This document shows positions 36,256 to 64,000 of a DNA stretch of 64,000 nucleotides, one piece after another; within the stretch, counting starts at the first letter, position 1; each line of letters opens with the position of its first letter. Made by a program: the position numbers and the translations under genes. The stretch covers positions 1,006,808 to 1,070,807 of the forward strand of contig CAVQXT010000007.1 in the NCBI GenBank assembly GCA_963717945.1. The letters are read 5' to 3'. The notes under the pieces are model-generated. The model had not been told where the DNA came from, did no database searches, and saw nothing but the letters and a program-made list of their open reading frames with translations. This DNA is from an uncultured Acidobacteriota bacterium. GTDB taxonomy: Bacteria > Acidobacteriota > Vicinamibacteria > Vicinamibacterales > Fen-181.

Positions 36256-36259
36256 GTCG

Positions 36260-37396
36260 TCACCGTCTCCTGAGCGTGATCGCGGTGATCTCTCCCGGCC
36301 GGAAGAGGCGCATCGGCGGGCCCCAGAAGCCGGTGCCGCGCGACACGAGCAGCGTCATCCCGTTCACCTCGTAACGTCCGACGACATACGGATACATCAG
36401 CCGCACGACGTGGGTGAAGGGCCAGATCTGTCCGGCGTGCGTGTGGCCCGACAGCATCAAGTCCACGCCCAGCTCGGCGGCGCGTTCGACCTGCCACGGG
36501 CTGTGCGACATGTAGATGGTCGTGCCCGCGGGCCGGTGCGCGAGCGCCCGGTCAACCGGCTGGCCGTTGCCGCCAAACTGGCGGCGGGCCGACAGGTCGT
36601 CGATGCCGGCCAGCACCAGGCCGGGGGCCAGTTCCGTGGCCCGATCCCGCAGGAGCGTGATCCCGGAGGCGTCGAAGATGCGGATCGCCCGGTCGAGCCC
36701 CGCGTAGTACTCGTGGTTGCCGAGCACGCCCCAGACGCCGAGCCGCGCGCGCAGGTGGCGGAACAGCGGCGCGAGCGATTCCGATATCACGCCGTCGTGA
36801 TCGACGAGGTCGCCGGTGACCAGCACGAGATCGGGCCGCAGGGCTTCGACTTGTGCCACGCGCTCCCGGACCCAGTCGCCGCCGAGCAGTGGCCCGATGT
36901 GCAGGTCGGTCAACTGGACGATCCGCAGGCCGTCGTACTCGGGGCGGAGACCGGACACGCGGACTTCGTGCTCGCGCACCTCTGGCGGCCGCAGCCCCTG
37001 GACGAGCGCGACCAGGCTCAGGACGCCGGCCGCCGTGACGGCCAGCCAGCGCGCCTGCCGCCACCAGGAGGGCGTCAGCCAGCCGAAGCCGGTCACGACG
37101 TCGGTGGCCAGCAGGCACACGAGCAGCAGGAAGAGCAGGCCCACCCACACCGACGCGCCGACCTCGAGCGGCAGGGCGGAGCGCCCGACCGAGCGGGACA
37201 GCCACTGGGCCAGCGGGAAGCTGGTCCAGAGAGCCGCCGCGCCGAGCGACAGGCCGAGGTGCCATCCGAATGACGGGCTGGCGGGGAGGTTCCAGAGCCG
37301 GGACACCACATAGAGATGCATGAGTGTCCAGACCCCGAGCACGATCAGAAGAAAGGTCATGATTCGACCGGCGTTGTCCGCGGGGGCGGAGGGCAT
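36260..37396 (-). CDS. Membrane-anchored metallophosphoesterase
   Basis: ORF 36260..37396. N-terminal TMs, then QLTDLHIG, VTGDLVD, GNHEY, SGHTHAGQ. Confidence 0.8.
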   Translation of the reverse strand: MPSAPADNAGRIMTFLLIVLGVWTLMHLYVVSRLWNLPASPSFGWHLGLSLGAAALWTSFPLAQWLSRSVGRSALPLEVGASVWVGLLFLLLVCLLATDVVTGFGWLTPSWWRQARWLAVTAAGVLSLVALVQGLRPPEVREHEVRVSGLRPEYDGLRIVQLTDLHIGPLLGGDWVRERVAQVEALRPDLVLVTGDLVDHDGVISESLAPLFRHLRARLGVWGVLGNHEYYAGLDRAIRIFDASGITLLRDRATELAPGLVLAGIDDLSARRQFGGNGQPVDRALAHRPAGTTIYMSHSPWQVERAAELGVDLMLSGHTHAGQIWPFTHVVRLMYPYVVGRYEVNGMTLLVSRGTGFWGPPMRLFRPGEITAITLRRR

Positions 37397-41948: not shown

Positions 41949-41978
41949 CGGCCGAGGGCGGTGGGCGGCCCGGGATCA

Positions 41979-42006
41979 TCAGATAGAGCAGGGCTTCAGC
42001 CCTGCT
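41979..42006. repeat. Solitary class-II hairpin CAGATA-GAGCAGGGC-TTCA-GCCCTGCTC
   Basis: Read directly. It differs from the 36.2 kb and 54.4 kb copies by a paired C>A / G>T change that keeps the stem. Confidence 0.8.
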
Positions 42007-42734: not shown

Positions 42735-42791
42735 GCGGGTCTGAAGACCCGCTCTACGTACGGATTTGTAGGCCGGCCCTTCAGGGCCGGC
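42735..42791. repeat. Head-to-head hairpin pair GCGGGTC-TGAA-GACCCGC CTAC ... GTAG GCCGGCCC-TTCA-GGGCCGGC
   Basis: Read directly. It has the same architecture as class-II elements (inner GTAG/CTAC, TGAA/TTCA loops). Confidence 0.75.
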
Positions 42792-42884
42792 GCCAGGTGG
42801 TCCGGGACGCCCGTGTTGCGCTTCTGCCCCATTCCTGTCAAACTAATGACATCTGCATCGACTTAGATTGAGACCTTCCGTCAG

Positions 42885-47271: not shown

Positions 47272-47328
47272 GGCATCCTCCTGACTGGGTGTCCCCAATT
47301 CTAGTCCAGAACGATCCGAAGAGAGGAA

Positions 47329-47500
47329 GCTCGCGCCACACAGACCAGGTCGCGCCACACAGACCAGGTCGCGCCACACAGACCAGGTCGCGCCACACCA
47401 GCCATGTGTAGCGCCGGCGTTCTCGCCGGCCGCCCGACCATGTGTGGGGCCGGCCTCGCCGGCCGCCCGACCATGTGTGGGGCCGGCCTCCTGGCCGGCC
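47329..47500. repeat. REP (class I) cluster: 4 minus-oriented GTGTGGCGCGA units (19-nt tandem) then 3 plus-oriented GTGT(A/G)G hairpins
   Basis: tcgcgccacacagaccagg occurs three times (47331, 47350, 47369) plus a partial copy. Then GTGTAGCGCCGGCG-TTCT-CGCCGGC, a degenerate copy, and GTGTGGGGCCGGCC-TCCT-GGCCGGCC. Confidence 0.85.
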
Positions 47501-47819
47501 TGAGGGCGCGACGGTTCCAAGCTATTGCCCGCCTGAAAAGAATCCGCGATTCCCAGCCACGCCGAACCGCGGGCGCCTCGTCCTCGCGATCCGGCTCCGC
47601 AGGCCGGGAAGGCTCCTCGCTCTGCGCCGGTTTCCGGATTTCTGTGTCCGGCTGGCGCTATTCGCGCTGGATCGACCGCACGCGCTGCGCCGGGGAAACC
47701 GGCGCAGGAGCTCATCGCCTTCCGGCATCTTGCGCGGCCTGCTCCGAACGGCTCGTTCGGCGAGTCATCCCACGGTCCGGCTCGCGATCCCGAATCGCTG
47801 TGGCCCGGCCGCCCCGCAA

Positions 47820-47898
47820 TGTGTGGGGCCGGCCTCCTGGCCGGCCGGGGTCCGCGAGCCAGAAGGTTCGCGCCACACAGACCAGGTCGCGCCACACA
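47820..47898. repeat. REP (class I) cluster: one plus and two minus units
   Basis: GTGTGGGGCCGGCCTCCTGGCCGGCC, then cgcgagccagaaggttcgcgccacac and gaccaggtcgcgccacaca. Confidence 0.85.
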
Positions 47899-47952
47899 GA
47901 CGGGAACCGGTCAGTGTCCAACGCGTCGGACCCGAGCTGATAGAATCCCGGG

Positions 47953-49194
47953 GTGGGAGAATCCCGGTCGCCATCGCGTGATGCGCGCATCCGCTGGTTC
48001 GTGGTCAGCGTGCTCGTGCTCTCGACCGCGCTGAGCTTCGTCGATCGCCAGGTGCTCGCCGCGCTCGCCCCCTTCCTCAAGGAGCAGTTCCACCTCTCCA
48101 ACGAAGGCTACGGCCTGGTCGTGTCGGCGTTCTCGCTCGCGTATGCGATCGTCGCCCCGGCGGCCGGCCTGCTCATCGACCGGATCGGGCTGACCGCCGG
48201 CGCCGCGGTCGCGGTCGGGCTCTGGTCGGTGGCGGGCGTGGCGACCGGCCTGGTCGGCGGCCTGGGCGGGCTGCTGACCTGCCGGGCCCTGCTCGGCGCC
48301 GCCGAATCGGGCGGCATCCCGGCGACGGCGAAGGGGTTCGCCCTCTACCTCGAGCCGCGCGAACGGGCGATGGGGACCGCGCTCAACCAGGTCGGCATCA
48401 CCCTCGGCATGATGCTCGCGCCGCTGCTGGTCGGCGGCCTCGCCGCCGTCTGGGGCTGGCGGGCCGCGTTCGTGGCCACGGGGCTGGCCGGCTTCGCCTG
48501 GGTGCCCCTGTGGCTGGTGACGGCCCGGAGATTCCCCGCGCGCGAACAGGCGCGCGTCGCGACAGCCGGCCCGGCGCTCTGGCGCGACTGGCGGCTGTGG
48601 GCGCTCGCCGTCGCCAACATCCTGATGATGACCGTCTACAGCCTGTGGATGAACTGGACGACGGTGTTCCTGGTGTCCGCGCACGGGCTGGACCCGGTGG
48701 CCGCGAACCGGCGCTTCGCCTGGGTGCCACCCGTGTTCGCCTCGCTCGGCGGCCTGGCCGGCGGGTGGCTGTCGATGAGGTGGGTGAGCGCCGGCGCGGG
48801 CCTGTACGCGGCGCGCCTTCGCGTGTGCGCGGTCGGCGCCGTGCTGCTCGTGTCGACCGCGCTCGTGCCGGCCGTGCCGGGCGCGCTGCCGGCGACGGCG
48901 CTCATCTCGCTCAGCTTCTTCGCGGCCGTGGCCATGAGCGCGAACATCTACGCGATGCCGCTCGACCTGTTCGGCGCGGGCCGGGCCGCGTTCGCCATCT
49001 CGGTCCTCACCGCGTCCTACGGCCTGATGCAGACCGTCGTCTCGCCGCTCATCGGCTACTCGGTGGACCATTACGGGTTTGGGCCGGTCTGCGCTGTCTG
49101 CGGCGTGCTGCCGCTGGCGTCGCTGGTGGTGCTGGTCGCGGTGGGGCGATCAGAAACAGGCTCTCGGCCTGAGGGTGAAGAAAGGCGAATATGA
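47953..49194 (+). CDS. MFS transporter
   Basis: ORF 47953..49194, 12 predicted TMs. VDRQVLAALAPFLKEQFHLSNEGYGLVVSAFSLAYA. Confidence 0.8.
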   Translation: MGESRSPSRDARIRWFVVSVLVLSTALSFVDRQVLAALAPFLKEQFHLSNEGYGLVVSAFSLAYAIVAPAAGLLIDRIGLTAGAAVAVGLWSVAGVATGLVGGLGGLLTCRALLGAAESGGIPATAKGFALYLEPRERAMGTALNQVGITLGMMLAPLLVGGLAAVWGWRAAFVATGLAGFAWVPLWLVTARRFPAREQARVATAGPALWRDWRLWALAVANILMMTVYSLWMNWTTVFLVSAHGLDPVAANRRFAWVPPVFASLGGLAGGWLSMRWVSAGAGLYAARLRVCAVGAVLLVSTALVPAVPGALPATALISLSFFAAVAMSANIYAMPLDLFGAGRAAFAISVLTASYGLMQTVVSPLIGYSVDHYGFGPVCAVCGVLPLASLVVLVAVGRSETGSRPEGEERRI

Positions 49195-51692: not shown

Positions 51693-54062
51693 TCAGAATC
51701 TCAGCTCGAGGGCGACATACACGTTCCGCGTCGCCAGGGGGTAATAGTAGCGCGTGCCCTCGAGCGTCAGCATCGACGGGTTGGTCCCCTCGACGAAGTA
51801 CTGGTAGCTGTAGCCGTTCGGGAACATGCGTCGATTGTCGAGCACGTTGTTGACCTGCACGCGCAGCCTCGGGTGCGCCGCCGAGAGCATCCGCAGCGGG
51901 CGCGACAGATCGAGCGACGCGGAGAGGGCGACGTCGGTTAAGGGCGGCGCCGTGAAATAGCTGTTGCCGGTATTGTCGAGGAACGACTGGCCCACGTGCT
52001 TCACGGTGGCGTCGAGCGTGGCGCCGCGCGTCGGCGTGTAGTCGGCGGAGAAGGTGGCCAGCACCGCGGGCGTGTTGTAGGGCGCGACGTCCTGGAAGGT
52101 GCGGCTCGTCGAGCCGGTCCAGTTTCCCGCGGCGTCGTAGACGTCGAAGAACTGCGTCCAGGTCGAGATCCGATTGAGGCTGTACGTCGCGGTGTGCCTG
52201 AGCTGGAGCGAATCGACCGGCCGCCATCTCAGGTCCATCTCGATGCCGGTGCGATAGCTGCGATCGACGTTCTGGTGGAGCGGGAGGCCGATCTCCGAGA
52301 GCTGACCGGTCTGGGCGATTTCGTGGCGGAACGACATCACGTAGCCGTTGACCTGCGCGCTGGCCCGGCGGCCCGTGTATGTCAGCCCGAACTCCCCGTC
52401 GACCACCTGCTCGGGCTGGACGGCCGCCAGGTTGTACACGACGCTGGCGTTGTCCTCGCCCTGCAGCATGTCCGAGCGGCCCGGTTCCCGCCCGGCGCGG
52501 CCGACCGACGCGTAAAAGCTCACGCCGCGGCCCACATCGAGCCGGACGCCGCCCTTCGGATTGAAGAACGTCCAGTGGATCGAGCCGAGGTCGAGCGAGC
52601 CGGCGTAGCGGAAGCGGGCCCATCGCACCTGGACGTCGCCGAGGTAGCTCCACCGCCCCCGCGTCCACGAGAACTTGGCGAAGGTGTTGAATTCCTGCTT
52701 GTAGCCGTGATTGAGGTAGTCGGCCGGCCCGGAGACGACGTCCCGGGTGTGCCGGCTCTCGAACGCGCTGGCGTAGGTGCCCCAGGTGAAGTCGGTGTGC
52801 GCGCCCGCCACGTGCAGCGTCGTGGACACGCCGACGTTGTGCCAGCTCAGGCCGTACTGGAAGAGGCCCGACGGCTCGGCGGCCGCGTCACGGAGGCGGT
52901 ACCAGCCGTCGGCGGCGTTGTAGAACCCCTGGACGGCCAGCTCGGTCCCCGGTTTCAGCGCGCGGTGATACTGCGCCGTCACGAAGCCCTGGGAGAACTC
53001 GTCGCGCTCCTCCGGCGTGAGCGGGTTGGTGCGAAGGTCCACGGCGAGCGCGGCTTCGTCGGCGGCGAGAAAGGCCTCCTGCGTGTGCTCGCGGCCGAAG
53101 AAGCCGAAGATCTTGAAGTAGGAGTCTGACGTGTCACGGCTGGCGCCGAGGTAGATACTCTTCTCGCCGACGCCGGAGTTGTGCTTGAACCCGTCGGAGG
53201 TCTGCGTCGCCGCCTGCGCATACAGCTTGAATCCGTGCGCGAGCTTGCCCGAGTTGAACACGCCGCTCAGGCGCTCGGTGCCGAAACTGCCGGCGCCGGT
53301 CCTGACGACCACCCCGGGCCGGTCGGTGAACGACGCGCTCGCGAAGTTGATCGAGCCGACAAACGACGAGGCGCCGACCGTGGAGGTGCCGACGCCGCGC
53401 TGCACCTGGATGCTGTCCACGGCGTTGGCGAAGTCGCCCAGGTCCGCGAAGTAGAAGGCGGAGTCTTCCGGCTCGGCGATCGGCATGCCGTCGATGGTGA
53501 CGTTCATCCGCGTCTGCGGGATGCCGCGCAGGTAGATGTAGGCGTAACCCGCCGGCGCCCCCGAGTCGGCGTATTGGGTCAGCGACGGGACCTGCTCGAG
53601 CAGGAAGGGGATCTCCTGGCCCCAGTTGCGGGCCTCGATCTCCTCGCGCGGGATGTCGGTCTTCGACACCGGCGCGTCTTCGGGCGCCCGGACCGCCTCG
53701 ACGGTGACGTCCTCGCGGAACCGCGCGAGCGGCGAGAGGACGACGTCCAGCGCCACCGCGGTCGTGCGGACGTCCACGCGCTGGTCGGCATCGACGTACC
53801 CCGCGTGCGAGAGGCGCAGCGTGTAGGACCCGGGCGGCAGATCGAGCTGGCAGCTTCCGTCGGCGCCGGTCTCGACCGACCGGGCCGGGGCCGCCACCGC
53901 AACGACGACGGCGGCGATCGGCGCGCCGGCGGCGGTGCGGACAACGACGCGGACCGGCACCGTGGATTGAGCGTCGAGCACGGCCGCGCCCGGGACGGCC
54001 AGCGCGAACGCGGCCAGGGCGAGCAGCCGGACGATCGATCTTGCGCGTGTGCGTACGTTCAC
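51693..54062 (-). CDS. TonB-dependent receptor with carboxypeptidase-regulatory-like N-domain
   Basis: ORF 51693..54062, GTG start with GAGGAGG upstream. Plug motifs (IYLRGIPQTRMNVTIDGMPI, IQVQRGVGTSTVGASSF) and a terminal ...VALELRF. Confidence 0.85.
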   Translation of the reverse strand: MNVRTRARSIVRLLALAAFALAVPGAAVLDAQSTVPVRVVVRTAAGAPIAAVVVAVAAPARSVETGADGSCQLDLPPGSYTLRLSHAGYVDADQRVDVRTTAVALDVVLSPLARFREDVTVEAVRAPEDAPVSKTDIPREEIEARNWGQEIPFLLEQVPSLTQYADSGAPAGYAYIYLRGIPQTRMNVTIDGMPIAEPEDSAFYFADLGDFANAVDSIQVQRGVGTSTVGASSFVGSINFASASFTDRPGVVVRTGAGSFGTERLSGVFNSGKLAHGFKLYAQAATQTSDGFKHNSGVGEKSIYLGASRDTSDSYFKIFGFFGREHTQEAFLAADEAALAVDLRTNPLTPEERDEFSQGFVTAQYHRALKPGTELAVQGFYNAADGWYRLRDAAAEPSGLFQYGLSWHNVGVSTTLHVAGAHTDFTWGTYASAFESRHTRDVVSGPADYLNHGYKQEFNTFAKFSWTRGRWSYLGDVQVRWARFRYAGSLDLGSIHWTFFNPKGGVRLDVGRGVSFYASVGRAGREPGRSDMLQGEDNASVVYNLAAVQPEQVVDGEFGLTYTGRRASAQVNGYVMSFRHEIAQTGQLSEIGLPLHQNVDRSYRTGIEMDLRWRPVDSLQLRHTATYSLNRISTWTQFFDVYDAAGNWTGSTSRTFQDVAPYNTPAVLATFSADYTPTRGATLDATVKHVGQSFLDNTGNSYFTAPPLTDVALSASLDLSRPLRMLSAAHPRLRVQVNNVLDNRRMFPNGYSYQYFVEGTNPSMLTLEGTRYYYPLATRNVYVALELRF

Positions 54063-54124: not shown

Positions 54125-54241
54125 AGTTCTCGAAATCGACGGGGAGCGCCGGCGCTCCCGATCGCCTTCCCTACGCCGGTACTACCCGGTTCAGGTTCGA
54201 GGGTGTGATCTCAGGCCGTAGTCTTTGGCCACCCCTAGGCG
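54125..54241 (-). promoter_or_regulatory. TPP (THI-box) riboswitch plus expression-platform hairpin
   Basis: The minus strand reads CGCCU-AGGGGUGGCC...CCUGAGAUCACACCCUCGAACCUGAACCGGGUAGUACCGGCGUAGGGA-AGGCG (aptamer 54241->54163), then GGGAGCGCC/GGCGCUCCC followed by GUCGAUUUCG. Confidence 0.85.
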
Positions 54242-54288
54242 TCCTGCCAGGCATCAGTGTGGCGCAGGGAGCCGGCAGAGTCAACGGC

Positions 54289-54468
54289 GCCTTACGCCGC
54301 GCCTTACGCCGTACGGCCTTACGCCTTACGGCCGGATTCGCCCACGCGCAGGCCTGAAGGCCTGCGCTATCTGCAGATAGTGCGGGGATCCACAGATAGC
54401 GCAGGGCTTCAGCCCTGCGCAGCAGCGTCAGCGTGAGGCGTGAGGCGTAAGGCGTAAGCCGTAAGCCG
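54289..54468. repeat. Class-II hairpin-pair element with CCTTACGCC-type terminal inverted short repeats (MITE-like)
   Basis: Left end (gccttacgcc)n and right end gtgaggcgtgaggcgtaaggcgtaagccgtaagcc (inverse complement). The core is identical in plan to 36128-36255 and includes the 14-nt palindrome CTATCTGCAGATAG. Confidence 0.85.
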
Positions 54469-54483
54469 CGAGGCGGTGGTACC

Positions 54484-55620
54484 ATGTCCCCCGTGAAGCT
54501 CGACGATCTCCCCACGCCCGCGCTCGTCGTCGACGAAGACCGGATGGCCCGGAACATCGACCGAATGCGACGGCGCCTGTCCGACCTCGGCGTCGGCTTT
54601 CGACCTCACGTCAAGACCGCAAAGAGCATCGAGATCTCCCGCCGACTGATGCCGACGGCGCACGGCCCGATCACCGTGTCGACGCTCAAGGAGGCCGAGC
54701 AGTTCTTCGCCCATGGCGTCACCGACGTGCTGTACGCGGTGGGCATCGAACCGGGGAAACTGACCCACGTTGCTGACCTGAGGGCACGCGGTTGCGACCT
54801 GACGGTGATCCTCGACAGCGTCGAGGCGGCGGCCGACGTCTCGGCGTTCTGCGCCGCAGGGCGGTGCGAGATCCCGGCGTTGGTCGAGATCGATTCGGAC
54901 GGCCACCGTGGCGGCGTGAAGCCCGATTCGGACGGCCTGCTCGGCGTGGCCGCCGCCCTGAAGTCGGGCGCCCGCTGTCGCGGAGTGATGACACACGCCG
55001 GCGCCTCCTACGACTGTCGATCCACCGACGCCATCGCCGCCATGGCCGAGCAGGAGCGCGCCGCCGTCGTGGGCGCGGCCGCGCGGCTTCGGGCCGCGGG
55101 CCACGACGCTCGAATCGTCAGCGTCGGGTCCACGCCGACGGCCACCTTCGCGCGAAACCTCGCCGGCGTCACCGAGGTGCGCGCCGGGGTATTCGTGTTC
55201 CAGGATCTCGTCATGGCGGGCCTCGGCGTCTGCGCGATCGAGGAGATTGCGCTCTCGGTGCTCGTGAGCGTCATCGGGCACCAGCGCGAGAAGGGCTGGA
55301 TCGTCACCGACGGCGGATGGATGGCCGTGTCGCGCGACCGCGGCACGGCGGGGCAGCCGATCGACCAGGGCTACGGCCTCGTGCGCGACGCGGACGGCCG
55401 GCTGCTCGAGTCCCTCGTCATGCACGGCGCCAACCAGGAGCACGGCCTGCTGTCGCGCCGGGACGGCGGCCCGCTCGACTGGGAGGCGTTCCGCATCGGA
55501 CGGCGGCTGCGGATCGTGCCCAACCACGCCTGCGCCACGGCCGCCCAGCACGCCGAGTACTTCGTCGTCAAAGGCTCTCGCGAGGTCGTCGCCCGCTGGG
55601 AGCGGTTCGGAGGATGGTGA
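54484..55620 (+). CDS. PLP-dependent D-threonine aldolase / D-serine dehydratase-like (alanine racemase N-domain family)
   Basis: ORF 54484..55620. LPTPALVVDEDRMARNIDRM...FRPHVKTAKS (PLP Lys) ...RIVPNHACATAAQH. Confidence 0.7.
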   Translation: MSPVKLDDLPTPALVVDEDRMARNIDRMRRRLSDLGVGFRPHVKTAKSIEISRRLMPTAHGPITVSTLKEAEQFFAHGVTDVLYAVGIEPGKLTHVADLRARGCDLTVILDSVEAAADVSAFCAAGRCEIPALVEIDSDGHRGGVKPDSDGLLGVAAALKSGARCRGVMTHAGASYDCRSTDAIAAMAEQERAAVVGAAARLRAAGHDARIVSVGSTPTATFARNLAGVTEVRAGVFVFQDLVMAGLGVCAIEEIALSVLVSVIGHQREKGWIVTDGGWMAVSRDRGTAGQPIDQGYGLVRDADGRLLESLVMHGANQEHGLLSRRDGGPLDWEAFRIGRRLRIVPNHACATAAQHAEYFVVKGSREVVARWERFGGW

Positions 55621-56003
55621 TGAGCCTCACTCGCATCGACCCGGGCACGATGGCCACGCCCGGCGGCCACTACAGCCACGTGGTCGTCCACAACGGCGTG
55701 GCCTACGTCTCCGGCCAGCTCCCGATTGCGCCGGTCGGCCCGCTGCCGGCGACGGCCTCGTTCGAGGAGCAGGCCCGCCAGGTGCTCGCCAACGTCCGCG
55801 CGGCGGTCACCGCGGCTGGCTCCGATCTCTCGAAAGTGCTGAAGTGTACCGTCTACGTGAACGACATCGCGGACTGGCCGGTCTTCAACCGGCTTTACGC
55901 CGAGACGTTCGGCGACCACAAACCGGCCCGCGTCGTCGTGCCCGTGTCACCGCTGCACTATGGGTATCGCGTGGAAATGGACGCGATAGTTGCAGTCGAC
56001 TGA
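55620..56003 (+). CDS. ridA: RidA/YjgF-family reactive-intermediate deaminase
   Basis: ATG 55620 (or GTG 55617) within ORF 54792..56003. GGHYSHVVVHNGVAYVSGQLP...KCTVYVNDIADWPVFNRLY...ARVVVPV. Confidence 0.75.
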   Translation: MSLTRIDPGTMATPGGHYSHVVVHNGVAYVSGQLPIAPVGPLPATASFEEQARQVLANVRAAVTAAGSDLSKVLKCTVYVNDIADWPVFNRLYAETFGDHKPARVVVPVSPLHYGYRVEMDAIVAVD

Positions 56004-56024
56004 CGGCCGGTGGCCGAAGGCCGA

Positions 56025-56370
56025 ACGCTGGCGCTACACGGCCGGCCAGGAGGCCGGCGCTACCGCCGGAAGTGTGTGGCGCGAGCCTCCTGGCTCGCGC
56101 GGGGCCAGTGCAGCAAGTGCCAGTTCGGCAGCGACCCCGACGCGCAGTTTCTGCCGCCGGTCTGCCGGCGACCCTAGGCCGGCCAGGAGGCCGGCGCTAC
56201 CGCCGGAAGTGTGTGGCGCGAGCCTCCTGGCTCGCGATGGCGGCCGACCAGGAGGCCGGCGCTACCGCCGGAAGTGTGTGGCGCGAGCCTCCTGGCTCGC
56301 GATGGCGGCCGGCCAGGAGGCCGGCGCTACCGCCGGAAGTGTGTGGCGCGAGCCTCCTGGCTCGCGATGG
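56025..56370. repeat. REP (class I) array upstream of RAYT: 4 composite units (inverted hairpin A + direct hairpin B), three at an exact 65-nt period
   Basis: The unit is ggccggccaggaggccggcgctaccgccggaaGTGTGTGGCGCGAGCCTCCTGGCTCGCGatggc. Hairpin B starts at 56072, 56209, 56274 and 56339. Confidence 0.9.
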
Positions 56371-56416
56371 CGGCCGGCATCACGTGACCCGGCATTGAGA
56401 ATGCACCTGGGCGGGC

Positions 56417-56863
56417 ATGGAGCGGTTCTATCGAAGGCGCCTCCCTCATTGGCGCGTCGAGGGGTCGTCGGCCGATTACTTCGTCACCTGGCGGATCGCC
56501 GCGTCGCAGGCCGAACTCTCATCGGCCGAGAGAGATCTCGTCGCAGGGTCCTTGGCCCATTGGGATGCGCGCACATGCCGGCTGTCCGCGTGGGTGGTCA
56601 TGAATGATCACGTCCACGTCGTCGTGGCGCCGGCGGTCGGCGTCCGGCTCGAGACGGTGCTGCACTCCTGGAAGTCCTACACCGCCACGCGAATGGTCCG
56701 AGGACATGGCCGCGCAGGCCCGGTGTGGCAGCGCGAGTCCTATGACCGCGTGATCAGAAACGACGAAGAGCTCCGGCTATTGATCGAATACGTCTGCCAC
56801 AACCCGTGGAAGCGATGGCCCAGCATGGGCGCCTACCGGTGGGTGTGGCCACAGCCGGCCTAG
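56417..56863 (+). CDS. REP-associated tyrosine transposase (RAYT, IS200/IS605 Y1 HUH family)
   Basis: ORF 56417..56863. FYRRRLPHW, HUH motif DHVHVVV, catalytic-Tyr region LIEYVCHNPWK. REP arrays lie on both flanks. Confidence 0.85.
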   Translation: MERFYRRRLPHWRVEGSSADYFVTWRIAASQAELSSAERDLVAGSLAHWDARTCRLSAWVVMNDHVHVVVAPAVGVRLETVLHSWKSYTATRMVRGHGRAGPVWQRESYDRVIRNDEELRLLIEYVCHNPWKRWPSMGAYRWVWPQPA

Positions 56864-56867
56864 CTGT

Positions 56868-56996
56868 GCGCCGGCCAGGAGGCCGGCGCTACACATTGTC
56901 GAGTGGTTCCGCGGATGCTGGAGGCCGGCGCTGAAACTCGGCCGGCCAGGAGGCCGGCGCTGAAATTCGGCCGGCCAGGAGGCCGGCGCTACACAT
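56868..56996. repeat. REP (class I) cluster downstream of RAYT (hairpin A: 3 full copies + 1 partial)
   Basis: gccggccaggaggccggcgctacac and ...gctgaaa variants at ~56870, 56940 and 56969, plus a partial at 56915. The minus strand reads GTGTAGCGCCGGCCTCCTGGCCGGC. Confidence 0.85.
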
Positions 56997-57028
56997 GGTC
57001 CGTGTTGCGCGAGGGCCGGGCGCGTCGA

Positions 57029-58591
57029 TTACGAGCCGCTTCGCTTTCCGAGTGCGACCGGTATAGGCGCCGTCAGCACCGCGGCGAGCGTCGTGATCCC
57101 GGTGAAGAACGTGCCCATCCGGAGGTTCTCGTTCTCGCCGTGCTGGTTGTTGTCGAAGTTGACGATGGGGACGCCGATCGCGGGCACGCCCATCGCCTCG
57201 ATGAACGGCGCAATCGGCACCGTGCCGCCCATCGTGCGGATCTGCACCGGCGGCCGGCCGAACATCCGGGTGATGGCGGCGACGATCTGCCGCGACGCCG
57301 GGGCGAGCGGCGAGGTCCGATAGGCGTTGGTCTCTCCGCCTTCGACCGTCAGCTTCACGATCCGGGCATGCGCCGCCCGCGTGGCATCGTCCGGGTCGCG
57401 GTCCACCAGGAAGAAGCCCTGCCGGGCGATGTGGGCCTTCAGGCGCGCGAGCATCGCGGCCGACGGCGTCTCTTTCACCAGCCGGATGTCGAGGGCCCCC
57501 GTGGCGCGGTCGGGAATGATCGTGCGGGCGTTCTCGCCGACAAACGCGCTCGAGAGGCCGCGGATGTTGAGGGACGGGCGCTGGACGGCTTCCTGGAGCG
57601 ACAGCCCGGGCTGCTCGACCTCGGCGATCCCGAACAGCTTCTCGAGCGCGGCTTCGTCGTCCGGCACCGCGGCCAGCATCGCCTTCTCCTCGGGGGCGAG
57701 CGGCTCGAGGCCGTCGTAAAAGCCCTGGACGAGCACGTGCCCGCGGTCGTCCTTCATCGAGGCCAGCAGGCGGACCAGCTCGAACGCCGGGTTCGGCACC
57801 CAGTTGCCGTAATGGCCGCTGTGCAGGGCGAACTTCGGGCCGAAGACCGTGAGCTCGACGGTCAGGATCCCGCGCGCGCCGAAGGTGATCGTCGGACGCC
57901 CGCTCGGGTGGACGGGGCCGTCGAGGATCACGATGGCGTCGGCGGCGAGCTTCTGGCGGTAACGGGCGATCGCCCCGATGAGGCTCGGCGAGCCCGCCTC
58001 CTCCTCGCCGTCGAGGACGACGTGCACGTTCGAGGTCGGCGCGTGCCCGGTGGCCTTCAGCGCGTCGAGCGCCGCGCACAGGGCGACAATCGGCGACTTG
58101 TCGTCGGAGGAAGAGCGGCCGTAGATCCGCCATCCAGGTTCGTATCGGGCGCGGTCCACCGGGCCGGGCAATTCGCGGCCGCCGTCCTCGAGCCGGCCGT
58201 CCCGCAGAATCGGCACGAACGGGTTGGGCTGCCTCCAGTTCTTCGGGTCCACCGGCTGGCCATCGTAGTGGGCGTACACGAGCACCGTCCCGGTCGCGCC
58301 GGGCACGGCCATTTCGCCGTAGACCAGCGGGTTGCCGGCGGTGGCGAGTGTCTCGGTCTTGAAGCCGTGCCGCGCGAGCATCGCCCTGAGCGCCTCGACG
58401 TTACGGGCGATGTCGGGCCCGTCGGCGGCGACGTTGGGAATCGCCAGCAGGTCGGCGAGCTCGCGGACGACTGCCTGCTGGTGCGCCTCGACCCAGGCGT
58501 CGATGCCGGCTCTCGGGGACGGGGACTGGGCGCGCGGGAGGGCGACCGCGGCGAGAAGGGCGGCGAGCACGAGCGAAAGGCGTGAGCGCAT
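57029..58591 (-). CDS. Secreted M20-family metallopeptidase (dipeptidase-like)
   Basis: ATG 58591 within ORF 57029..59005 (the upstream extension is REP array). Signal peptide MRSRLSLVLAALLAAVALPRAQS. YAHYDGQPVD, GRSSSDDKSPI, DGEEEAGSPSL. Confidence 0.8.
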   Translation of the reverse strand: MRSRLSLVLAALLAAVALPRAQSPSPRAGIDAWVEAHQQAVVRELADLLAIPNVAADGPDIARNVEALRAMLARHGFKTETLATAGNPLVYGEMAVPGATGTVLVYAHYDGQPVDPKNWRQPNPFVPILRDGRLEDGGRELPGPVDRARYEPGWRIYGRSSSDDKSPIVALCAALDALKATGHAPTSNVHVVLDGEEEAGSPSLIGAIARYRQKLAADAIVILDGPVHPSGRPTITFGARGILTVELTVFGPKFALHSGHYGNWVPNPAFELVRLLASMKDDRGHVLVQGFYDGLEPLAPEEKAMLAAVPDDEAALEKLFGIAEVEQPGLSLQEAVQRPSLNIRGLSSAFVGENARTIIPDRATGALDIRLVKETPSAAMLARLKAHIARQGFFLVDRDPDDATRAAHARIVKLTVEGGETNAYRTSPLAPASRQIVAAITRMFGRPPVQIRTMGGTVPIAPFIEAMGVPAIGVPIVNFDNNQHGENENLRMGTFFTGITTLAAVLTAPIPVALGKRSGS

Positions 58592-58621
58592 CGGTCGAGT
58601 GTAAACCCGAACCGGGGGCGA

Positions 58622-59008
58622 CGGTCGCGCTGACCCCGGCTTTCGCGAGCCAGGAGGCTCGCGCCACACAGTGCCGCTTGAAGCGCCGACCCTGGCATTC
58701 GCGAGCCAGGAGGCTCGCGCCACACAGTGCCGCTTGAAGCGCCGACCCTGGCATTCGCGAGCCAGGAGGCTCGCGCCACACAGTGCCGCTTGAAGCGCTG
58801 ACCCCGGCTTTCGCGAGCCAGGAGGCTCGCGCCACACAGTGCCGCCTGTAGCGCCGGCGCCGGCAGCCGCGAGCCAGGAGGCTCGCGCCACACAGTGCCG
58901 CTTGAAGCGCCGACCCTGGCATTCGCGAGCCAGGAGGCTCGCGCCACACAGTGCCGCCTGTAGCGCCGGCCCCGGCAGCCGCGAGCCAGGAGGCTCGCGC
59001 CACACAAT
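58622..59008. repeat. REP (class I) array: 7 hairpin-B copies (minus orientation) at an exact 56-nt period
   Basis: cgcgagccaggaggctcgcgccacaca starts at 58644, 58700, 58756, 58812, 58868, 58924 and 58980. The linkers alternate between two sequence types. Confidence 0.9.
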
Positions 59009-59017
59009 GCCGCCCGA

Positions 59018-59347
59018 TCAGACCGTCGCGGTGTGACTCCGGATGTCGTGATTGAGCGCGTGGATCTGGCGACGGAGCGCCTTGAGCGTCTTGCTGTCGC
59101 CCGCCGCGATTGCTTCGCTCCGCTTCTGCCTGAGGGCCCGCATCTTCGCCTTGATCGCCGACTTGTCGAACCCGCCCGCGGCGTGGTGCTCGTGCAACGG
59201 AATCTTGAGGGCGGTGCACAGGGCCGCCAGCAAGTGATCCTTGTTGAGCTGGGTGTAGCCCTTCACCGCCTCGTGTTCGAGCCCCCTGGCGATTTCACGC
59301 AGTTCAACGACGGTCTTTCCCTTGAGGTCGTGGTACGTGTAGGACAT
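59018..59347 (-). CDS. Small protein with Rho_N/SAP-like N-terminal domain
   Basis: ORF 59018..59347. DLKGKTVVELREIARGLEHEAVKGYTQLNKDHLLAALC. Confidence 0.5.
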   Translation of the reverse strand: MSYTYHDLKGKTVVELREIARGLEHEAVKGYTQLNKDHLLAALCTALKIPLHEHHAAGGFDKSAIKAKMRALRQKRSEAIAAGDSKTLKALRRQIHALNHDIRSHTATV

Positions 59348-59386
59348 CGAAGCTCCTTTTCAGCCGCATTCTACCGCGAGGCCGCG

Positions 59387-59698
59387 TCAGCGAACCACGA
59401 CGCGACGCACACCCCAGCCGATGGCCGCGCCCAGAGCGGCAATCGCAACCGCGATGAACACCCCATAACCGCCGGCTATCTCCGCGCCGACCATGGGGCC
59501 GGCAACGAGGAGGACGACCAGCCAGGGCCAGGCTCCCGCCCCCGAGGTCAGCGCCGACGCCAGGAACAAGCAGCCAGCGGTGATGCCCGCATCGTCCCAG
59601 CCGGGGCGGGTGTCCATCCAGGCGATGGCGACGCCGGAGACGAGCGCCACCAGAGACGCCACATATGCCGATACCTTTGCGCGGGTCTCGTTGGGCAT
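59387..59698 (-). CDS. Small (103 aa) three-TM membrane protein
   Basis: ATG 59698 within ORF 59387..60271: MPNETRAKVSAYVASLVALVSGVAIAWMD... Confidence 0.45.
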   Translation of the reverse strand: MPNETRAKVSAYVASLVALVSGVAIAWMDTRPGWDDAGITAGCLFLASALTSGAGAWPWLVVLLVAGPMVGAEIAGGYGVFIAVAIAALGAAIGWGVRRVVVR

Positions 59699-59711
59699 GC
59701 GTGATGTCCTC

Positions 59712-59776
59712 GCCTTAGCCTTGAGCCCGAGCCTTGAGCCGTCCTTCCCTGAGCCTTGAGCCCTGAGCCTTGAGCC
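59712..59776. repeat. GGCTCAR heptamer tract element (reverse orientation)
   Basis: The reverse complement reads ggctcaa ggctcag ggctcaa ggctcag ggaaggac ggctcaa ggctcgg gctcaag. It lies between the ABC-2 permease stop and the small membrane gene. Confidence 0.85.
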
Positions 59777-61074
59777 TATTCGCTTTCCCACCTGAACCGC
59801 GCGACGGCCAGGCCTCCGAAAACGAGCGCCGCGGCCAGCAGGAACAGGATGGGCCAGCCGACCGACGAGAGGCCCAGCCCGCGCCAGGTCGTCGCATCCA
59901 GGCCGTCTACCGCCCACCGGGTCGGCACCACGGCGGTCGCCTGCTGGAGCCACTTCGGGAAGACGAACGTGGGGACCCACGCGCCGCCGAGCATCACGAG
60001 CAGCAGCGTGGAGACGATCGCCAACCCGCGGGCGCTGTCCGGCGTCCGGCCGAGGCTGGCGATGAGCAGGCCGAATGCGGCGGCGAGCAGCGAGAACGCG
60101 ACGGCCACGCCCATGAAGCCGACGAGGCTGCCCTCGATGCGGACGCCGAAGACCACCCACGCGAACAGGTAGAGGCAGGCCAGGATGAAGAGCGACAGCA
60201 GCGCCGTGCTGACGGCCCTGCTGCCGAGCAGGACGGTCCTGGAGAGCGGTGCGGCGCGCAGCCGTTTCCAAAGCCCCTCGCGTCGCTGCATCAGCAGCCC
60301 CACGCCCATCTCGATCGCCATGAAGAGGATGAACTGCACGCCCATGCCGGCAAACGAGTGGGCGTAGCCGTTGTAGACGATGCCCGGGCCCGACGTGACG
60401 GCCGCCTTCTTCACCTCGAACGGGACCGTCAGGCCGTTGGCCTCGCCGGTCGATCCGGAGGTGCGGCTGACGTCGTTCCAGCCCTTCACGCCCTCGAGCA
60501 GCGTCGTCAGCGCGCGCCGCTGGTCCGAGGCGATGGCGGTGTCCTCGCGGACCCTCGCCAGCGACGCGTCCACCGCGTCCCGGCCGGTCTTCCCGCTGAA
60601 CATCTCCTTGCTGACCGCCTCCATGGCGTGGCCGGCGAGAATGCCCTGGACCATGCCGGCTTCGGTCGCGTGAGAGGGGTCGTACAGCAGCTCGATGTCC
60701 GCCTTCGCGGCACCCGGTCCGCCGAAGAAGGCGGCAGACGCCGTTTTACCGAACCCCGCCGGGACGCGGAGAGCGACCGGCGCCTTCCCGCGCCGGACCG
60801 CGTCCCGCGCCTCGCCCGGCGAAGCGGCTTTCACGTCGAGCGCGGCGTCGGCCTTCAGCAGCGCCGCCAGGTTGGTGGAGATCGCGCTGTGGTCCTCGTC
60901 GGCGATCATCACCACGACGCGGCTCATCTCGCGCTGGCCGCCCGTCTCTCCGAAGATGAACCCGAAGAACGACGCGATCGCGATCGGCGCGACGACCGAC
61001 ATCAGCACCGCGCGCCGGTCCGACAGGTAGATCCGGATGTCCTTTGTGACGAGCGCGGTGAAGGCTCGCATCAT
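59776..61074 (-). CDS. ABC-2 type exporter permease
   Basis: ATG 61074 (ATGA overlap with the ATPase stop) within ORF 59776..61176. One N-terminal TM, a large periplasmic loop and five C-terminal TMs. Confidence 0.75.
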   Translation of the reverse strand: MMRAFTALVTKDIRIYLSDRRAVLMSVVAPIAIASFFGFIFGETGGQREMSRVVVMIADEDHSAISTNLAALLKADAALDVKAASPGEARDAVRRGKAPVALRVPAGFGKTASAAFFGGPGAAKADIELLYDPSHATEAGMVQGILAGHAMEAVSKEMFSGKTGRDAVDASLARVREDTAIASDQRRALTTLLEGVKGWNDVSRTSGSTGEANGLTVPFEVKKAAVTSGPGIVYNGYAHSFAGMGVQFILFMAIEMGVGLLMQRREGLWKRLRAAPLSRTVLLGSRAVSTALLSLFILACLYLFAWVVFGVRIEGSLVGFMGVAVAFSLLAAAFGLLIASLGRTPDSARGLAIVSTLLLVMLGGAWVPTFVFPKWLQQATAVVPTRWAVDGLDATTWRGLGLSSVGWPILFLLAAALVFGGLAVARFRWESE

Positions 61075-62006
61075 CGATCTCGCAGCGCCCGCCCGGTGAG
61101 GGTCAGGAAGACGGTTTCGAGGCTGGCCCGCTCGGTGGCGACGTGGTGGTAGTTGTGGCCGTGGGCGGTGAACCACTGCAGCACCGAGGGCATCGTGGCG
61201 CCCAGGTCGGCCACCGTGACCCGGATCACGCCCTGGGCCGTCTCGACGCGCTGCACGCCACCCAGCGCCTGCAGCCCGTCGGCCGGGACGGCGTCGGCCG
61301 CGACGGCAAGGGTGACGGTGATGACGTTCCGGGCCGGCACGAGCTTCGACAACTCCTGCGCGGTGCCGTCGGCGATCACCCGGCCGTGGTCGAGGATGAC
61401 GATCCGGTCGCAGAGCCGCTCGGCCTCCTCCATGTAGTGCGTCGTGTAGAGGATCGTCGTGCCGCGCCGCTTGAGCGTCTCGAGGTTGTCGAAGATCGCG
61501 TTGCGGCTCTGCGGATCGACGCCGACCGTCGGCTCGTCGAGCAGGAGGATGGCCGGGGCGTGGAGCAGGGCGGCCGCGAGGTTCAGCCGCCGCTTCATGC
61601 CGCCGCTGAAGGTCCGGACCTTGTCCTGCGCCCGTTCGGTCAGCCCGGTCAGGCCCAGCGCGTCGGCGATGGCGCGACGGGTCGCCTGGCGATCGAGGTC
61701 GTAGAGCGCCGAGAACAGCCGCAGGTTCTCGGCCGCCGAGAGCTCGTCGATGAGCGCCAGATCCTGGGTGACCAGGCCGATCCGCGACTTGAGGGGGTCG
61801 GTGTCGCCGGCGAGCCGGCGCCCGTCGATCAGCACCTCGCCCGAGTCCGGGCGCAGCAGCCCCGCAATCATCGCCACCGTCGTGGTCTTGCCCGCCCCGT
61901 TGGGGCCGAGCAGGCCGACCGTCTCGCCCGCGGCGGCGGCGAACGTCACGTGATCGACCGCCGTCAGAGTGCCGAAGCGCCGTGTGACGTCGTGCAGGTC
62001 AAGCAT
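61071..62006 (-). CDS. ABC transporter ATP-binding protein (ABC-2 subfamily)
   Basis: ORF 61071..62006. GPNGAGKTTT, FSGGMKRRLNLAAAL, LLLDEPTVGVD. Confidence 0.85.
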   Translation of the reverse strand: MLDLHDVTRRFGTLTAVDHVTFAAAAGETVGLLGPNGAGKTTTVAMIAGLLRPDSGEVLIDGRRLAGDTDPLKSRIGLVTQDLALIDELSAAENLRLFSALYDLDRQATRRAIADALGLTGLTERAQDKVRTFSGGMKRRLNLAAALLHAPAILLLDEPTVGVDPQSRNAIFDNLETLKRRGTTILYTTHYMEEAERLCDRIVILDHGRVIADGTAQELSKLVPARNVITVTLAVAADAVPADGLQALGGVQRVETAQGVIRVTVADLGATMPSVLQWFTAHGHNYHHVATERASLETVFLTLTGRALRDR

Positions 62007-62101
62007 CGGAGCGATCGCCCGAATTGGACAAACGTGGCTGCCGGGAAGTTCGCCGGGACGCCGAATCTGGTATTCTCCAGCTGCGCATCAGGGAGTGTCT
62101 C

Positions 62102-63178
62102 ATGATTCAAGCCAGGATCACAGTGGCGCCCTGTCTCGTCGCACTCGTCCTCGCCGGTGCCGCCTGCGGCACCAAGCCACCGGCGTCCGACGCCGGGCCT
62201 GACAACAGCCGCCCGGTCGTGGCCAGGGAACGGCTCGCGGTCTTCGCGCCGCTCCCCTCCTCGGTGACGCCCGACTCCGGCCGCATCGACGAGCACGCCG
62301 TCGTGCTCGGCCGGATGCTCTTCTACGAGCCGCGCCTCTCGAAGAGCCAGACCATCTCCTGCAACACCTGCCACGACTTGTCGCAGTACGGCGCGGACGG
62401 CCAGCCCACCTCCGACGGGTTCAAGGGGCAGCGGGGCACGAGGAACGCTCCGACGGTGTTCAACGCCGCGGCGCACTTCGCCCAGTTCTGGGACGGCCGC
62501 GCGGCGGACGTCGAGGCGCAGGCCAAGGGCCCCGTGCTGAACCCGGTGGAAATGGCGCTGCCGAGCGCCAATCGGGCGGTCGTCGTCCTGAAGTCGATGC
62601 CCGAGTACGTGGACCTGTTCAGGCGGGCGTTCCCAAATGAGAAGGACCCGGTCACCTTCGACAACATGGCGAAGGCGATCGGCGCCTTCGAGCGCAAGCT
62701 GATGACGCCGTCGAGGTGGGACGCGCTGCTCAACGGGGATACCGCCGCGTTGACGCCCGCCGAGACGATGGGCCTGCGCACGTTCCTCGACACCGGCTGC
62801 CAGGTCTGCCACAACGGGGCGCTGCTCGGGGGGACGAGCTATCAGAAGCTGGGGCTGGCCAAGCCCTATCCCGGCCTCGCCGACCCCGGCCGCTTCGACG
62901 TGACGAAGGTCCAGTCCGACTTCGGCATGTTCAAGGTGCCGTCGCTGCGCAACGTGGCGCGGACAGGGCCGTACTTCCACGACGGCAAGGTCGCCACGTT
63001 GGACGACGCGGTGCGGAAGATGGCCGAGTTCCAACTGGGGAAGAAGCTGTCGGACGAAGAGGTCCGGCAGATCGTCGCCTTCCTGAGGGTGCTGACCGGG
63101 CGCATCGATCCCGAGTACATCAAGCCGCCCGTGCTGCCGAAGAGCACGGCGAAGACGCCGAAGCCGGAACCGCGGTAG
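62102..63178 (+). CDS. Dihaem cytochrome c peroxidase (CCP/MauG family) lipoprotein
   Basis: ATG 62102 within ORF 62024..63178. Lipobox LAGAAC, CNTCH and CQVCH, FKVPSLRNVARTGPYFHDG. Confidence 0.85.
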   Translation: MIQARITVAPCLVALVLAGAACGTKPPASDAGPDNSRPVVARERLAVFAPLPSSVTPDSGRIDEHAVVLGRMLFYEPRLSKSQTISCNTCHDLSQYGADGQPTSDGFKGQRGTRNAPTVFNAAAHFAQFWDGRAADVEAQAKGPVLNPVEMALPSANRAVVVLKSMPEYVDLFRRAFPNEKDPVTFDNMAKAIGAFERKLMTPSRWDALLNGDTAALTPAETMGLRTFLDTGCQVCHNGALLGGTSYQKLGLAKPYPGLADPGRFDVTKVQSDFGMFKVPSLRNVARTGPYFHDGKVATLDDAVRKMAEFQLGKKLSDEEVRQIVAFLRVLTGRIDPEYIKPPVLPKSTAKTPKPEPR

Positions 63179-63181
63179 CGC

Positions 63182-63946
63182 TCACCGCCTGGCGTCGGTC
63201 CTCCGAATCGCGCTGACCCACGGCTCGAGCCGCGCGCCCCAGCGAACCGTGGCCACGTAGCGCGGCGGGCGAGGCTCGGTGTCTATCCCGGGCATGCCGG
63301 CTCGTCGTGGCGTTCCCGGACGGGCGGCGAGCGTCTCGATGTCGTGGCGCAGGTCGCGCGGCAGGTTCAGGTCGGAGACCAGCACGCTGTACACCCGGCC
63401 CGCCACTCGAGGCGGGAGGCCGGGTTGAGAGACGACCGTCAGCCCCACGACGGCCTGCACGATGGCGACGCGCGTACGGTCGGGGTAGCGCGCGCGGAGC
63501 CGTGCGGCGTCGAGGTCGAGATCCACGAGCATGAGGTGGGGCACGCCGTCGGCCGACGTCGTATCCACATTCGGAGGCAGGCTCGCAGCGTAGCGCTGCC
63601 AGGCCGGCCCCTCGTACTCCAGGGCCGCGTAGACGCGCCGCGCCGGCATGGACGAATAGCGCCTGGCGTTCTCCCGCGTCACCGGAACGCTGCAATCGAA
63701 GCCGAGCGAAGCGAGCTTCGCCTGGTTGAACCAGTCGGTATTGCGGGCGATGTTCGGGCCGGTCCAATCCAGCCGGAGCGAAACGGCGCTGTTCTCCGGC
63801 GCCCCGGGCACCAGCCGCACCTCGCGCTCGGTGAGCTGGAGCACCGCGTCGGAGTCGCCCAGTCGATTGACGGCGGCCAGCCCGAGCGCCCAGAAGTTGG
63901 ATCCGACGACGACCGCGGCGGCCAGCCAAAGACCCTTGCGCGTCAT
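63182..63946 (-). CDS. Membrane-anchored hypothetical protein (DUF4824-like, tentative)
   Basis: ORF 63182..63946, with one N-terminal TM. Its ATG overlaps the stop of the upstream gene (ATGA). Confidence 0.45.
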   Translation of the reverse strand: MTRKGLWLAAAVVVGSNFWALGLAAVNRLGDSDAVLQLTEREVRLVPGAPENSAVSLRLDWTGPNIARNTDWFNQAKLASLGFDCSVPVTRENARRYSSMPARRVYAALEYEGPAWQRYAASLPPNVDTTSADGVPHLMLVDLDLDAARLRARYPDRTRVAIVQAVVGLTVVSQPGLPPRVAGRVYSVLVSDLNLPRDLRHDIETLAARPGTPRRAGMPGIDTEPRPPRYVATVRWGARLEPWVSAIRRTDARR

Positions 63947-64000
63947 CTCGCGCCTCCCCTCATCCGCAGCCGGAGTCTCGCGAGCAGAGCCATGGCACCC
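63943..64000 (-). CDS. 3' end of an unidentified gene (5' part outside the window)
   Basis: The minus-strand frame reads ...GAMALLARLRLRMRGGAR-stop, with TGA at 63945-63943. Confidence 0.3.
   Translation of the reverse strand, partial: GAMALLARLRLRMRGGAR

Follow-up and report, generated by a model that had tools for sequence, protein, structure and literature searches.

A tyrosine transposase gene embedded in arrays of its probable REP substrates in an uncultured acidobacterium

We have analysed a 64,000 nt stretch of DNA from an uncultured soil bacterium of the Acidobacteriota (assembly GCA_963717945.1, contig CAVQXT010000007.1; the whole stretch is referred to below as the window), in which a small transposase gene is bracketed by short repeated hairpins. 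We propose with considerable confidence that this region is a REPtron, that is, a single intact gene encoding a REP-associated tyrosine transposase (RAYT; TnpA_REP, a Y1 HUH enzyme of class 2) and embedded in arrays of its cognate repetitive extragenic palindromes (REPs). By analogy with the Escherichia coli enzyme, the protein is most likely a domesticated single-strand DNA transposase that cuts and spreads these hairpins. REP-RAYT systems are well known in E. coli and Pseudomonas; the locus extends their range to the Acidobacteriota and brings with it a tidy new substrate rule, but it is not a new kind of system.

The gene is an intact open reading frame (ORF) at 56417-56863 on the plus strand that encodes 148 residues, and the N-terminus (MERFYRRRLPHW) is aligned with the starts of homologues. 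An earlier reading of the letters alone (the sequence-only reading) had pointed to HVH and EYVCHNP as the catalytic motifs of this protein, and both are in place, the HUH motif as H65-V-H67 and the tyrosine as Y125. Class 2 (TnpA_REP) is marked by the motif Y---NP, and IS200 by Y---Q (Quentin et al. 2018, PMC6006769). In E. coli, residues W94, Q95, E100, H101 and R104 contact the GTAG guide (PMC6006769). Their equivalents here are W104, Q105, D110, R111 and R114, which form a contact-type motif WQ...DR..R in which E is replaced by D and H by R, as in subclasses 2.5 and 2.7 (PMC6006769). In an alignment of 27 homologues with 50-83% identity, no variation is seen at H65, H67, W104, D110, Y125, N129 and P130, and conservation is 90% or more at Q105, R111 and R114. 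An extra N-terminal motif, RRLPHW, is also conserved in the family. The subclass may be 2.5-like, or the protein may be one of the outliers around 2.2; no acidobacterial entries for the assignment were found in the supplementary tables of Quentin 2018.

Comparisons with curated models and known structures do not group the protein with ordinary IS200 TnpA. NCBIfam NF047646 (REP_Tyr_transpos) matches it with 73.2 bits (E 2e-20) and the IS200 model with 20.1 bits (cut-off 55), and the match to Pfam Y1_Tnp, at 24.6 bits, is barely over threshold. The sole PDB chain matched by sequence is 4ER8, E. coli TnpA_REP (RayT) in complex with REP. An AlphaFold2 model built from the 27 homologues (mean predicted local distance difference test score 88.2) also has 4er8_A as its top Foldseek match in the PDB (E 6e-8, template modelling score 0.62, root mean square deviation 3.5 Å), with the IS200, ISDra2 and IS608 transposases ranking behind it (E 2e-5 to 1e-3). 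Profile alignment with E. coli K-12 RayT (b0228) by hhalign gives 94.8% probability over 113 columns, with 20% identity over the aligned core. No tnpB was found alongside the gene.

The REPs around the gene are of two types, each a short palindrome within the 20-40 nt expected of REPs of the GTAG superfamily, and each with its GT[AG]G tag left unpaired at one end. Hairpin A reads GCCGGCCAGGAGGCCGGCGCTAC on the plus strand and is built of (GT)GTAGC, a stem of 7-9 bp and the loop TCCT; hairpin B, GTGTGGCGCGAGCCTCCTGGCTCGCG on the plus strand, has the head GTGTGG, a stem of 8 bp and the loop TCCT. All four of the composite A/B units that had been described upstream of the gene were located, with A starting at 56041, 56178, 56243 (one mismatch, in the stem, GCCGACC) and 56308, and B, perfect throughout, at 56074, 56211, 56276 and 56341. 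In each unit A(-) and B(+) lie head-to-head with a 9-nt spacer between the heads. The first pair (56041-56099; A 56041-56063, B 56074-56099) is preceded by a degenerate A-type head, GTGTAGCGCC, which forms no clean hairpin and lies at 56030-56039 (-) after the stop codon of the RidA gene. The other three pairs occupy 56177-56378, where the exact 65-nt period previously noticed is recovered by Tandem Repeats Finder as 3.1 copies at 98% matches, with one difference in 202 nt. Because these units are near-identical, a recent tandem amplification is suggested, by the enzyme or by slippage.

Downstream, the hairpins are all A-type and all on the minus strand. The first (56870-56894), which has GTGTAG as its head and 9 bp in its stem, begins 7 nt past the RAYT stop, and the segment 56920-56994 holds a half copy (~56920-56936), an A at 56941-56965 with two mismatches, both in the head, and a full A at 56970-56994, with a 29-nt period detected over 56920-56990. 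The three full copies and one partial copy of the sequence-only reading are therefore where they were said to be, except that the head at 56941 is TCAG, not GTAG. Similarly, the suggestion that both types share a GTGT(A/G)G head stands for B (GTGTGG) and for the A copies at 56870 and 56970 (GTGTAG) but not for the four upstream A copies, whose heads are GGTAGC. The overall layout is such that the hairpins face the gene while their GT[AG]G heads point outward, upstream with B on the plus strand and downstream with A on the minus strand. In 100 dinucleotide-preserving shuffles there were no matches to the A or B patterns, as against 10 and 12 observed (at up to 3 mismatches). As single-stranded DNA, B folds with -11.4 kcal/mol (z -4.8) and A with -10.0 kcal/mol (z -4.1), and the 65-nt unit folds into two separate hairpins, the stems of A and B being different. 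Across the window, 81 perfect hairpins have loops of 4 nt on stems of 6 bp or more, and in 19 of them the loop reads TCCT on the head strand.

The association of gene and hairpins seen at this locus also holds clade-wide. Relatives of the RAYT at E <= 1e-3 number 447 among the candidates scored, the best of them (P0001) being 83% identical; at JGI many of them are annotated under COG as 'REP element-mobilizing transposase RayT', whereas at NCBI they are called plainly 'transposase'. We surveyed 80 metagenome loci that encode homologues, many on contigs that are cut short, counting hairpins whose stems are perfectly paired over 7 bp or more and whose loops measure 3-6 nt. With a GT[AG]G head, 168 lie no more than 500 nt from the gene (in 67.6 kb of sequence) and 28 lie farther away (in 276.6 kb), an enrichment of about 25-fold, and at least one is present at 55 of the 80 loci. 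In 18 of the 33 loci with hairpins on both sides the nearest pair is on the plus strand upstream and the minus strand downstream, with heads outward as in the window. The loop contains TCY or CTC on the head strand in 126 of 158 cases, and the complement alone in 6. Counted from the first G of the head, the T of TCY is at exactly 12 nt in 127 of the 147 elements that have this kind of loop and at 13 nt in a further 16; GTAG and GTGG heads are about equally common. The elements of the clade thus follow the rule GT[AG]G-N8-TCY while their stems vary freely, and A and B of the window both obey it despite their different stems. Three loci, one on contig_53951 from the same sample (L119), one from Vicinamibacterales GCA_036504215.1 (L120) and one from an Acidobacteriaceae genome (L017), have a layout like that of the window with stems of their own. 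At L120 one clear REP copy also lies between genes, 7.5 kb away from the RAYT gene, and local REP copies more than 700 nt from the gene are found at 8 of the 26 loci with enough sequence.

REPs are also present away from the gene within the window, where the same repeats occupy two other intergenic regions, 47320-47900 and 58627-59013. The three REP-bearing regions fall within 12 kb, and by orthology with two related contigs described below all the clusters lie between genes. The array at 58627-59013, between the start of an M20 peptidase gene (58591) and the stop of a 109-residue gene (about 59024), has a 56-nt period in 6.9 copies and consists of seven perfect B(-) hairpins alternating head-to-head with degenerate A(+) copies of two variants, one in which 6 nt (CTCCTG) are deleted at the loop and one with a shortened loop. 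The A/B unit is the same as in the array at 56.0-56.4 kb, with heads facing across 9 nt, and the two arrays carry it in opposite orientations. The sequence-only reading had likened the A/B alternation to bacterial interspersed mosaic elements (BIMEs), and this likeness is sound in that the two types of hairpin are related, take alternate orientations and have been amplified in tandem. The cluster at 47320-47500 has four truncated B(-) heads at a 19-nt period and then three A-type (+) hairpins with GTGTAG or GTGTGG heads and the loops TTCT, CTC and TCCT; that at 47805-47900 (repeat family D8) has an A-type (+) hairpin, one diverged B(-) and one truncated B(-) head. Between the last two lie about 290 nt (47512-47804) that are absent from one of the related contigs (L116) and are bounded by 53-nt direct repeats, 47459-47511 and 47805-47857, which are 87% identical and include the A-type hairpin; neither a RAYT remnant nor a meaningful Rfam match was found in this segment.

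Two contigs from close relatives, L116 and L117, carry M20 peptidase orthologues with 91% and 86% protein identity respectively and are collinear with the window. The window and these relatives differ at exactly three stretches, all of them REP-bearing. The first, 47318-47991, is 674 nt in the window and 193 nt in L116; the second, 58613-59010, is 398 nt in the window, 64 nt in L116 and 74 nt in L117; and the third, 55985-57054, is 1070 nt in the window and 2247 nt in L116, where it contains a GH127 glycosidase gene. All three REP clusters are insertions relative to L116 and L117. In the window the gene order is D-Ser dehydratase (+), RidA (+; stop codon at 56003), RAYT (+) and M20 peptidase (-), whereas in both relatives GH127 (beta-L-arabinofuranosidase-like) lies between the M20 and RidA genes (L116 8893-11139, L117 11570-13705). 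The RAYT gene and its REPs thus occupy the place of GH127, with the neighbouring genes intact and no trace of GH127 in the window, and no RAYT gene is found in about 20 kb of either relative. Just past the RidA stop, a lone B element, GGTGGTGGCGCGAGCCTCCTGGCTCGCG, is found in L116, oriented as in the window; at the RidA 3' end of L117 there is likewise one REP in this orientation, GGTAGCCGCGGCCCTCCTGGGCCGCGG, with the head, loop and spacing of the L116 element and a wholly different stem. A single REP at this site therefore predates the present arrangement, and the arrays and the gene are gains, or rearrangements, of the lineage represented by the window. The D-Ser dehydratase gene is present in the window and L117 and missing in L116.

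The repeat is not confined to these close relatives. An exact scan with GTGTRGSGCSRGCCTCCTGGCYSGC, using one genome per species, gave 34 places, nearly all in Acidobacteriota (Terracidiphilus, other Acidobacteriaceae, one Thermoanaerobaculia and one Bryobacterales), with matches on three or four separate contigs in several genomes. Most of the matches are the A sequence itself, and directly after it there usually comes another hairpin headed by GT[AG]G, whose loop is TCCY and whose stem is perfectly complementary but variable. A RAYT homologue is encoded at only one of the 34 places, L017, where a protein of 234 residues, 43% identical over the core, is flanked by inverted two-hairpin units; REPs of this type are therefore dispersed in acidobacterial genomes away from the gene. 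We considered whether the 25-nt identity of A between Vicinamibacterales-like and Terriglobia genomes is evidence for horizontal transfer, and rejected this as weak because, with head and loop constrained, only a 7-nt GC-rich stem is free to vary and, with many genomes compared, coincidence is plausible.

An alternative explanation is that the gene is a decaying or idle relic, and that the arrays are kept or amplified by host processes such as replication slippage, recombination, or selection as terminators or stabilisers of mRNA. The exact tandem periods of 65 nt and 56 nt are of the kind that slippage or unequal recombination produces, the loop-deleted A copies of the array at 58.8 kb resemble palindrome decay, no promoter was detected, and REPs persist in the relatives without a nearby RAYT. 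We nevertheless regard this explanation as improbable. The ORF is intact, the catalytic and guide-contact positions are all conserved across the 27 homologues, and at 80 independent loci the hairpins are enriched about 25-fold next to the gene, keep their polarity and hold the distance from head to loop constant, which would be hard to explain unless a protein reads them.

A still less likely alternative, to which we attach little weight, is that this is an autonomous insertion sequence (IS) of the IS200/IS605 type, such as IS608 or ISDra2, whose hairpins are its own subterminal ends and which transposes as a whole unit. The HUH/Y1 fold and chemistry are indeed common to the two, as reflected in the Pfam Y1_Tnp match, and so is the logic of a hairpin plus a guide on single-stranded DNA; moreover, the gene is missing at the orthologous site in the close relatives, with GH127 there instead, which implies that it moved, or was gained or lost, at some point. 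However, the IS200 model falls far short of its cut-off (20 versus 55 bits), the tyrosine motif is Y---NP and not Y---Q (PMC6006769), and there is no tnpB, which often accompanies IS200/IS605 TnpA. Such elements have distinct, non-inverted ends and several identical copies, whereas the flanking hairpins here are mutually inverted and form multi-copy arrays that also stand without a gene at other sites and in other genomes. There is one copy of the gene in the window, where tblastn found no second or decayed copy (best E 0.5, the 47.5-47.8 kb segment included), and the exact protein is recorded on one contig only (ENA ERZ25039489 contig_61570, 1,331,989 bp). Another group, the TnpAY1 class 3 of Planctomycetes and Acidobacteria, has a Y----Q motif and hairpins with a CnGA foot (Quentin 2018, PMC6006769) and is ruled out by the Y---NP motif and the GT[AG]G foot seen here.

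That the arrays are a degenerate CRISPR or other structured-RNA locus, as palindromic repeats of ~26-34 nt at periods of 56-65 nt might suggest, can be dismissed with near certainty, since the 'spacers' are not unique (identical in the 65-nt array, or of two variants only that are themselves decayed A copies), the repeat orientation alternates, there are no cas genes among the neighbours, and Rfam gives no match to these (class-I) repeats.

Several observations weigh against our interpretation of the region as a REPtron. The curated RAYT cut-off of 80 bits is missed by 7 bits, although, as the score is 53 bits above that of the IS200 model, the protein is better seen as a divergent member of the family than as a non-member. 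All copies of the class-I REPs in the window are less than 9 kb from the gene, with none at 1-47000 or 59100-64000. The absence of the gene from this position in the close relatives does not fit the picture of a strictly vertical, position-stable RAYT of the E. coli type. Finally, consensus scans of 55500-59300 revealed neither a sigma-70-like promoter nor an intrinsic terminator; we infer that the gene may be expressed by read-through from the genes upstream.

Among known systems the E. coli K-12 REPtron (rayT = yafM, b0228, with Y/Z2 REP pairs and BIMEs) offers a close parallel. The fold and the HUH, WQ and Y---NP motifs are alike, and in both systems the gene stands between REP pairs made of two related subtypes whose orientation alternates, the hairpins having GT[AG]G as their 5' guide. 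Other intergenic sites hold tandem amplifications of such pairs, as in BIME-2. The differences are that identity over the aligned core is only 20%, that D110/R111 here correspond to E100/H101, that the hairpins here are short and perfect (7-9 bp stem, 4-nt loop) where those of E. coli have long bulged stems, that the extra N-terminal RRLPHW is conserved here, and that the host belongs to the Acidobacteriota. In other respects the locus recalls the RAYTs of the Pseudomonas/Xanthomonas type (Bertels group 3; Quentin subclass 2.5), which share the length of about 150 residues, the D and R in place of E100 and H101, the short REPs and the head-to-head doublets. Foot plus stem in REPs of that type falls in a narrow range of 10-13 nt (PMC6006769), and the 12 nt of A, B and 127 of the 147 clade elements lie within it. 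The motifs of subclass 2.5 are, however, DH[LF]H and YI[VI]ANP, compared with DHVH and Y[IV]xxNP here. In contrast to Pseudomonas REPINs (REP doublets forming hairpins), the A/B pair is unable to form a single long hairpin because the two stems differ, and in this it is nearer to the Y/Z2 BIMEs of E. coli.

A further group to be considered is that of the TIRYT genes of T. saanensis, K. versatilis, A. capsulatum and G. mallensis, which are likewise acidobacterial and RAYT-like and have inverted-repeat flanks, some of them double palindromes; the L017 locus, with its homologue between inverted two-hairpin units, shows exactly such a layout. TIRYTs have been classed as associated with terminal inverted repeats (TIRs) and not with REPs, and GTAG repeats have been listed for Proteobacteria, Cyanobacteria, Chloroflexi and the PVC group, with Acidobacteria not listed (Di Nocera et al. 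2013, PMC3733652). The present system has plain GT[AG]G-headed REPs that are also dispersed.

We take E. coli TnpA_REP as the mechanistic model (Ton-Hoang 2012, Messing 2012, as summarised in PMC6006769 and PMC3733652). By this analogy the enzyme would bind REP hairpins on single-stranded DNA and read the 5' GT[AG]G guide. It would probably read the TCY loop as well, because this loop is conserved at a fixed distance, 12 nt, from the head. Cleavage and rejoining would proceed through Y125 with a metal bound by the HUH motif. The expected outcome is that head-to-head A/B pairs, as BIME- or REPIN-like units, are seeded and amplified while the gene of the enzyme itself stays put.

A more far-reaching proposal, which we put forward as tentative, joins several claims: that these proteins form a large uncharacterised RAYT subclade, that their substrate rule acts as a 'ruler', that the system is currently active in this lineage, and that the REPtron itself has relocated. 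The subclade would comprise more than 440 relatives from soil and sediment phyla (Acidobacteriota, Binatota-like, Planctomycetota-like and others). A ruler would measure a GT[AG]G head, 8 free nucleotides and a TCY loop, the sequence of the stem not being read, and stems could therefore drift or be swapped freely, with one enzyme serving A, B and further subtypes. The suggestion of activity and relocation draws on the three clusters that are inserted relative to contigs with 86-91% identical M20 proteins, and on the gene replacing GH127 at a pre-existing single REP. If true, relocation would run against the idea that REPtrons are immobile.

What is known of REP-RAYT systems comes almost entirely from E. 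coli, Pseudomonas, Stenotrophomonas and Neisseria. Although current understanding is not overturned, the Acidobacteriota would now contribute a clean pair of enzyme and substrate, with very short perfect hairpins and, as the repeats suggest, two natural substrate variants differing only in the stem. The rule GT[AG]G-N8-TCY is a directly testable hypothesis of recognition, and insertion polymorphisms among close relatives provide a means of dating REP gain in an uncultured lineage.

The source is Vicinamibacterales-like. As regards the neighbouring genes, the named relatives of the M20 peptidase are only from Vicinamibacterales and Acidobacteria, at 63-67% identity. The REP array gives rise in translation to long spurious ORFs with a repeating pattern (...VWREPPGSR...CGASLLAR...), at 57029-59005 and 58401-59219 (-), and it seems that the gene caller of the source assembly was misled by it (calls on L001, equivalent to 58850-59179 of the window). 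The real 109-residue gene is placed by orthology at about 59027-59347 (-).

A second REP-like family is present in the window, with the loop TTCA and the head CAGATAGCGC or GTAG, at 36135-36260, 54316-54441, 41972-42005 and 42740-42795. It occurs as head-to-head doublets at 36186/36218 and 54367/54399 (126 nt, 94% identical) and at 42752/42772, and singly at 41986; in L117 a TTCA doublet arranged tail-to-tail lies upstream of the M20 gene. The window revealed no RAYT that would be cognate to this family. We considered whether L119 is part of the same genome and its RAYT the partner, but could draw no link, the REPs flanking that gene being of a third type. Tandem repeats of GCCTTACGCCGTACG and, inverted, GCGTAAGGCGTGAG flank the TTCA doublet (54287-54333 and 54431-54475; also 36129-36152) as an extended inverted repeat, and for this reason the whole unit looks like an element of 130-190 nt resembling a miniature inverted-repeat transposable element. 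The TTCA hairpins at 54347-54378 (+) and 54392-54419 (-) give sub-threshold matches to Rfam RF01687, Acido-Lenti-1 (21 and 25 bits; gathering score 37). The consensus of RF01687, a hairpin and then CUA, resembles a TAG-headed REP on the opposite strand, and this family may in part be made of REP-type DNA repeats.

Close to the TTCA unit, a TPP (thiamine pyrophosphate) riboswitch (RF00059) at 54151-54246 (-) scores 63.1 bits, over the gathering score, and lies upstream of a gene for a TonB-dependent receptor (51693-54062, -), which is followed by genes for a PnuC-family transporter and an AAA_28 protein; together these probably constitute a thiamine uptake operon. Heptamer tandem repeats (GCCTTGA, GGGGTCA, CGGCTGA and GGTCAGT) are also seen in intergenic acidobacterial DNA, at 59706-59777 of the window, ~11085-11120 of L116, ~13650-13730 of L117 and ~5640-5720 of L017, some of them adjoining REPs.

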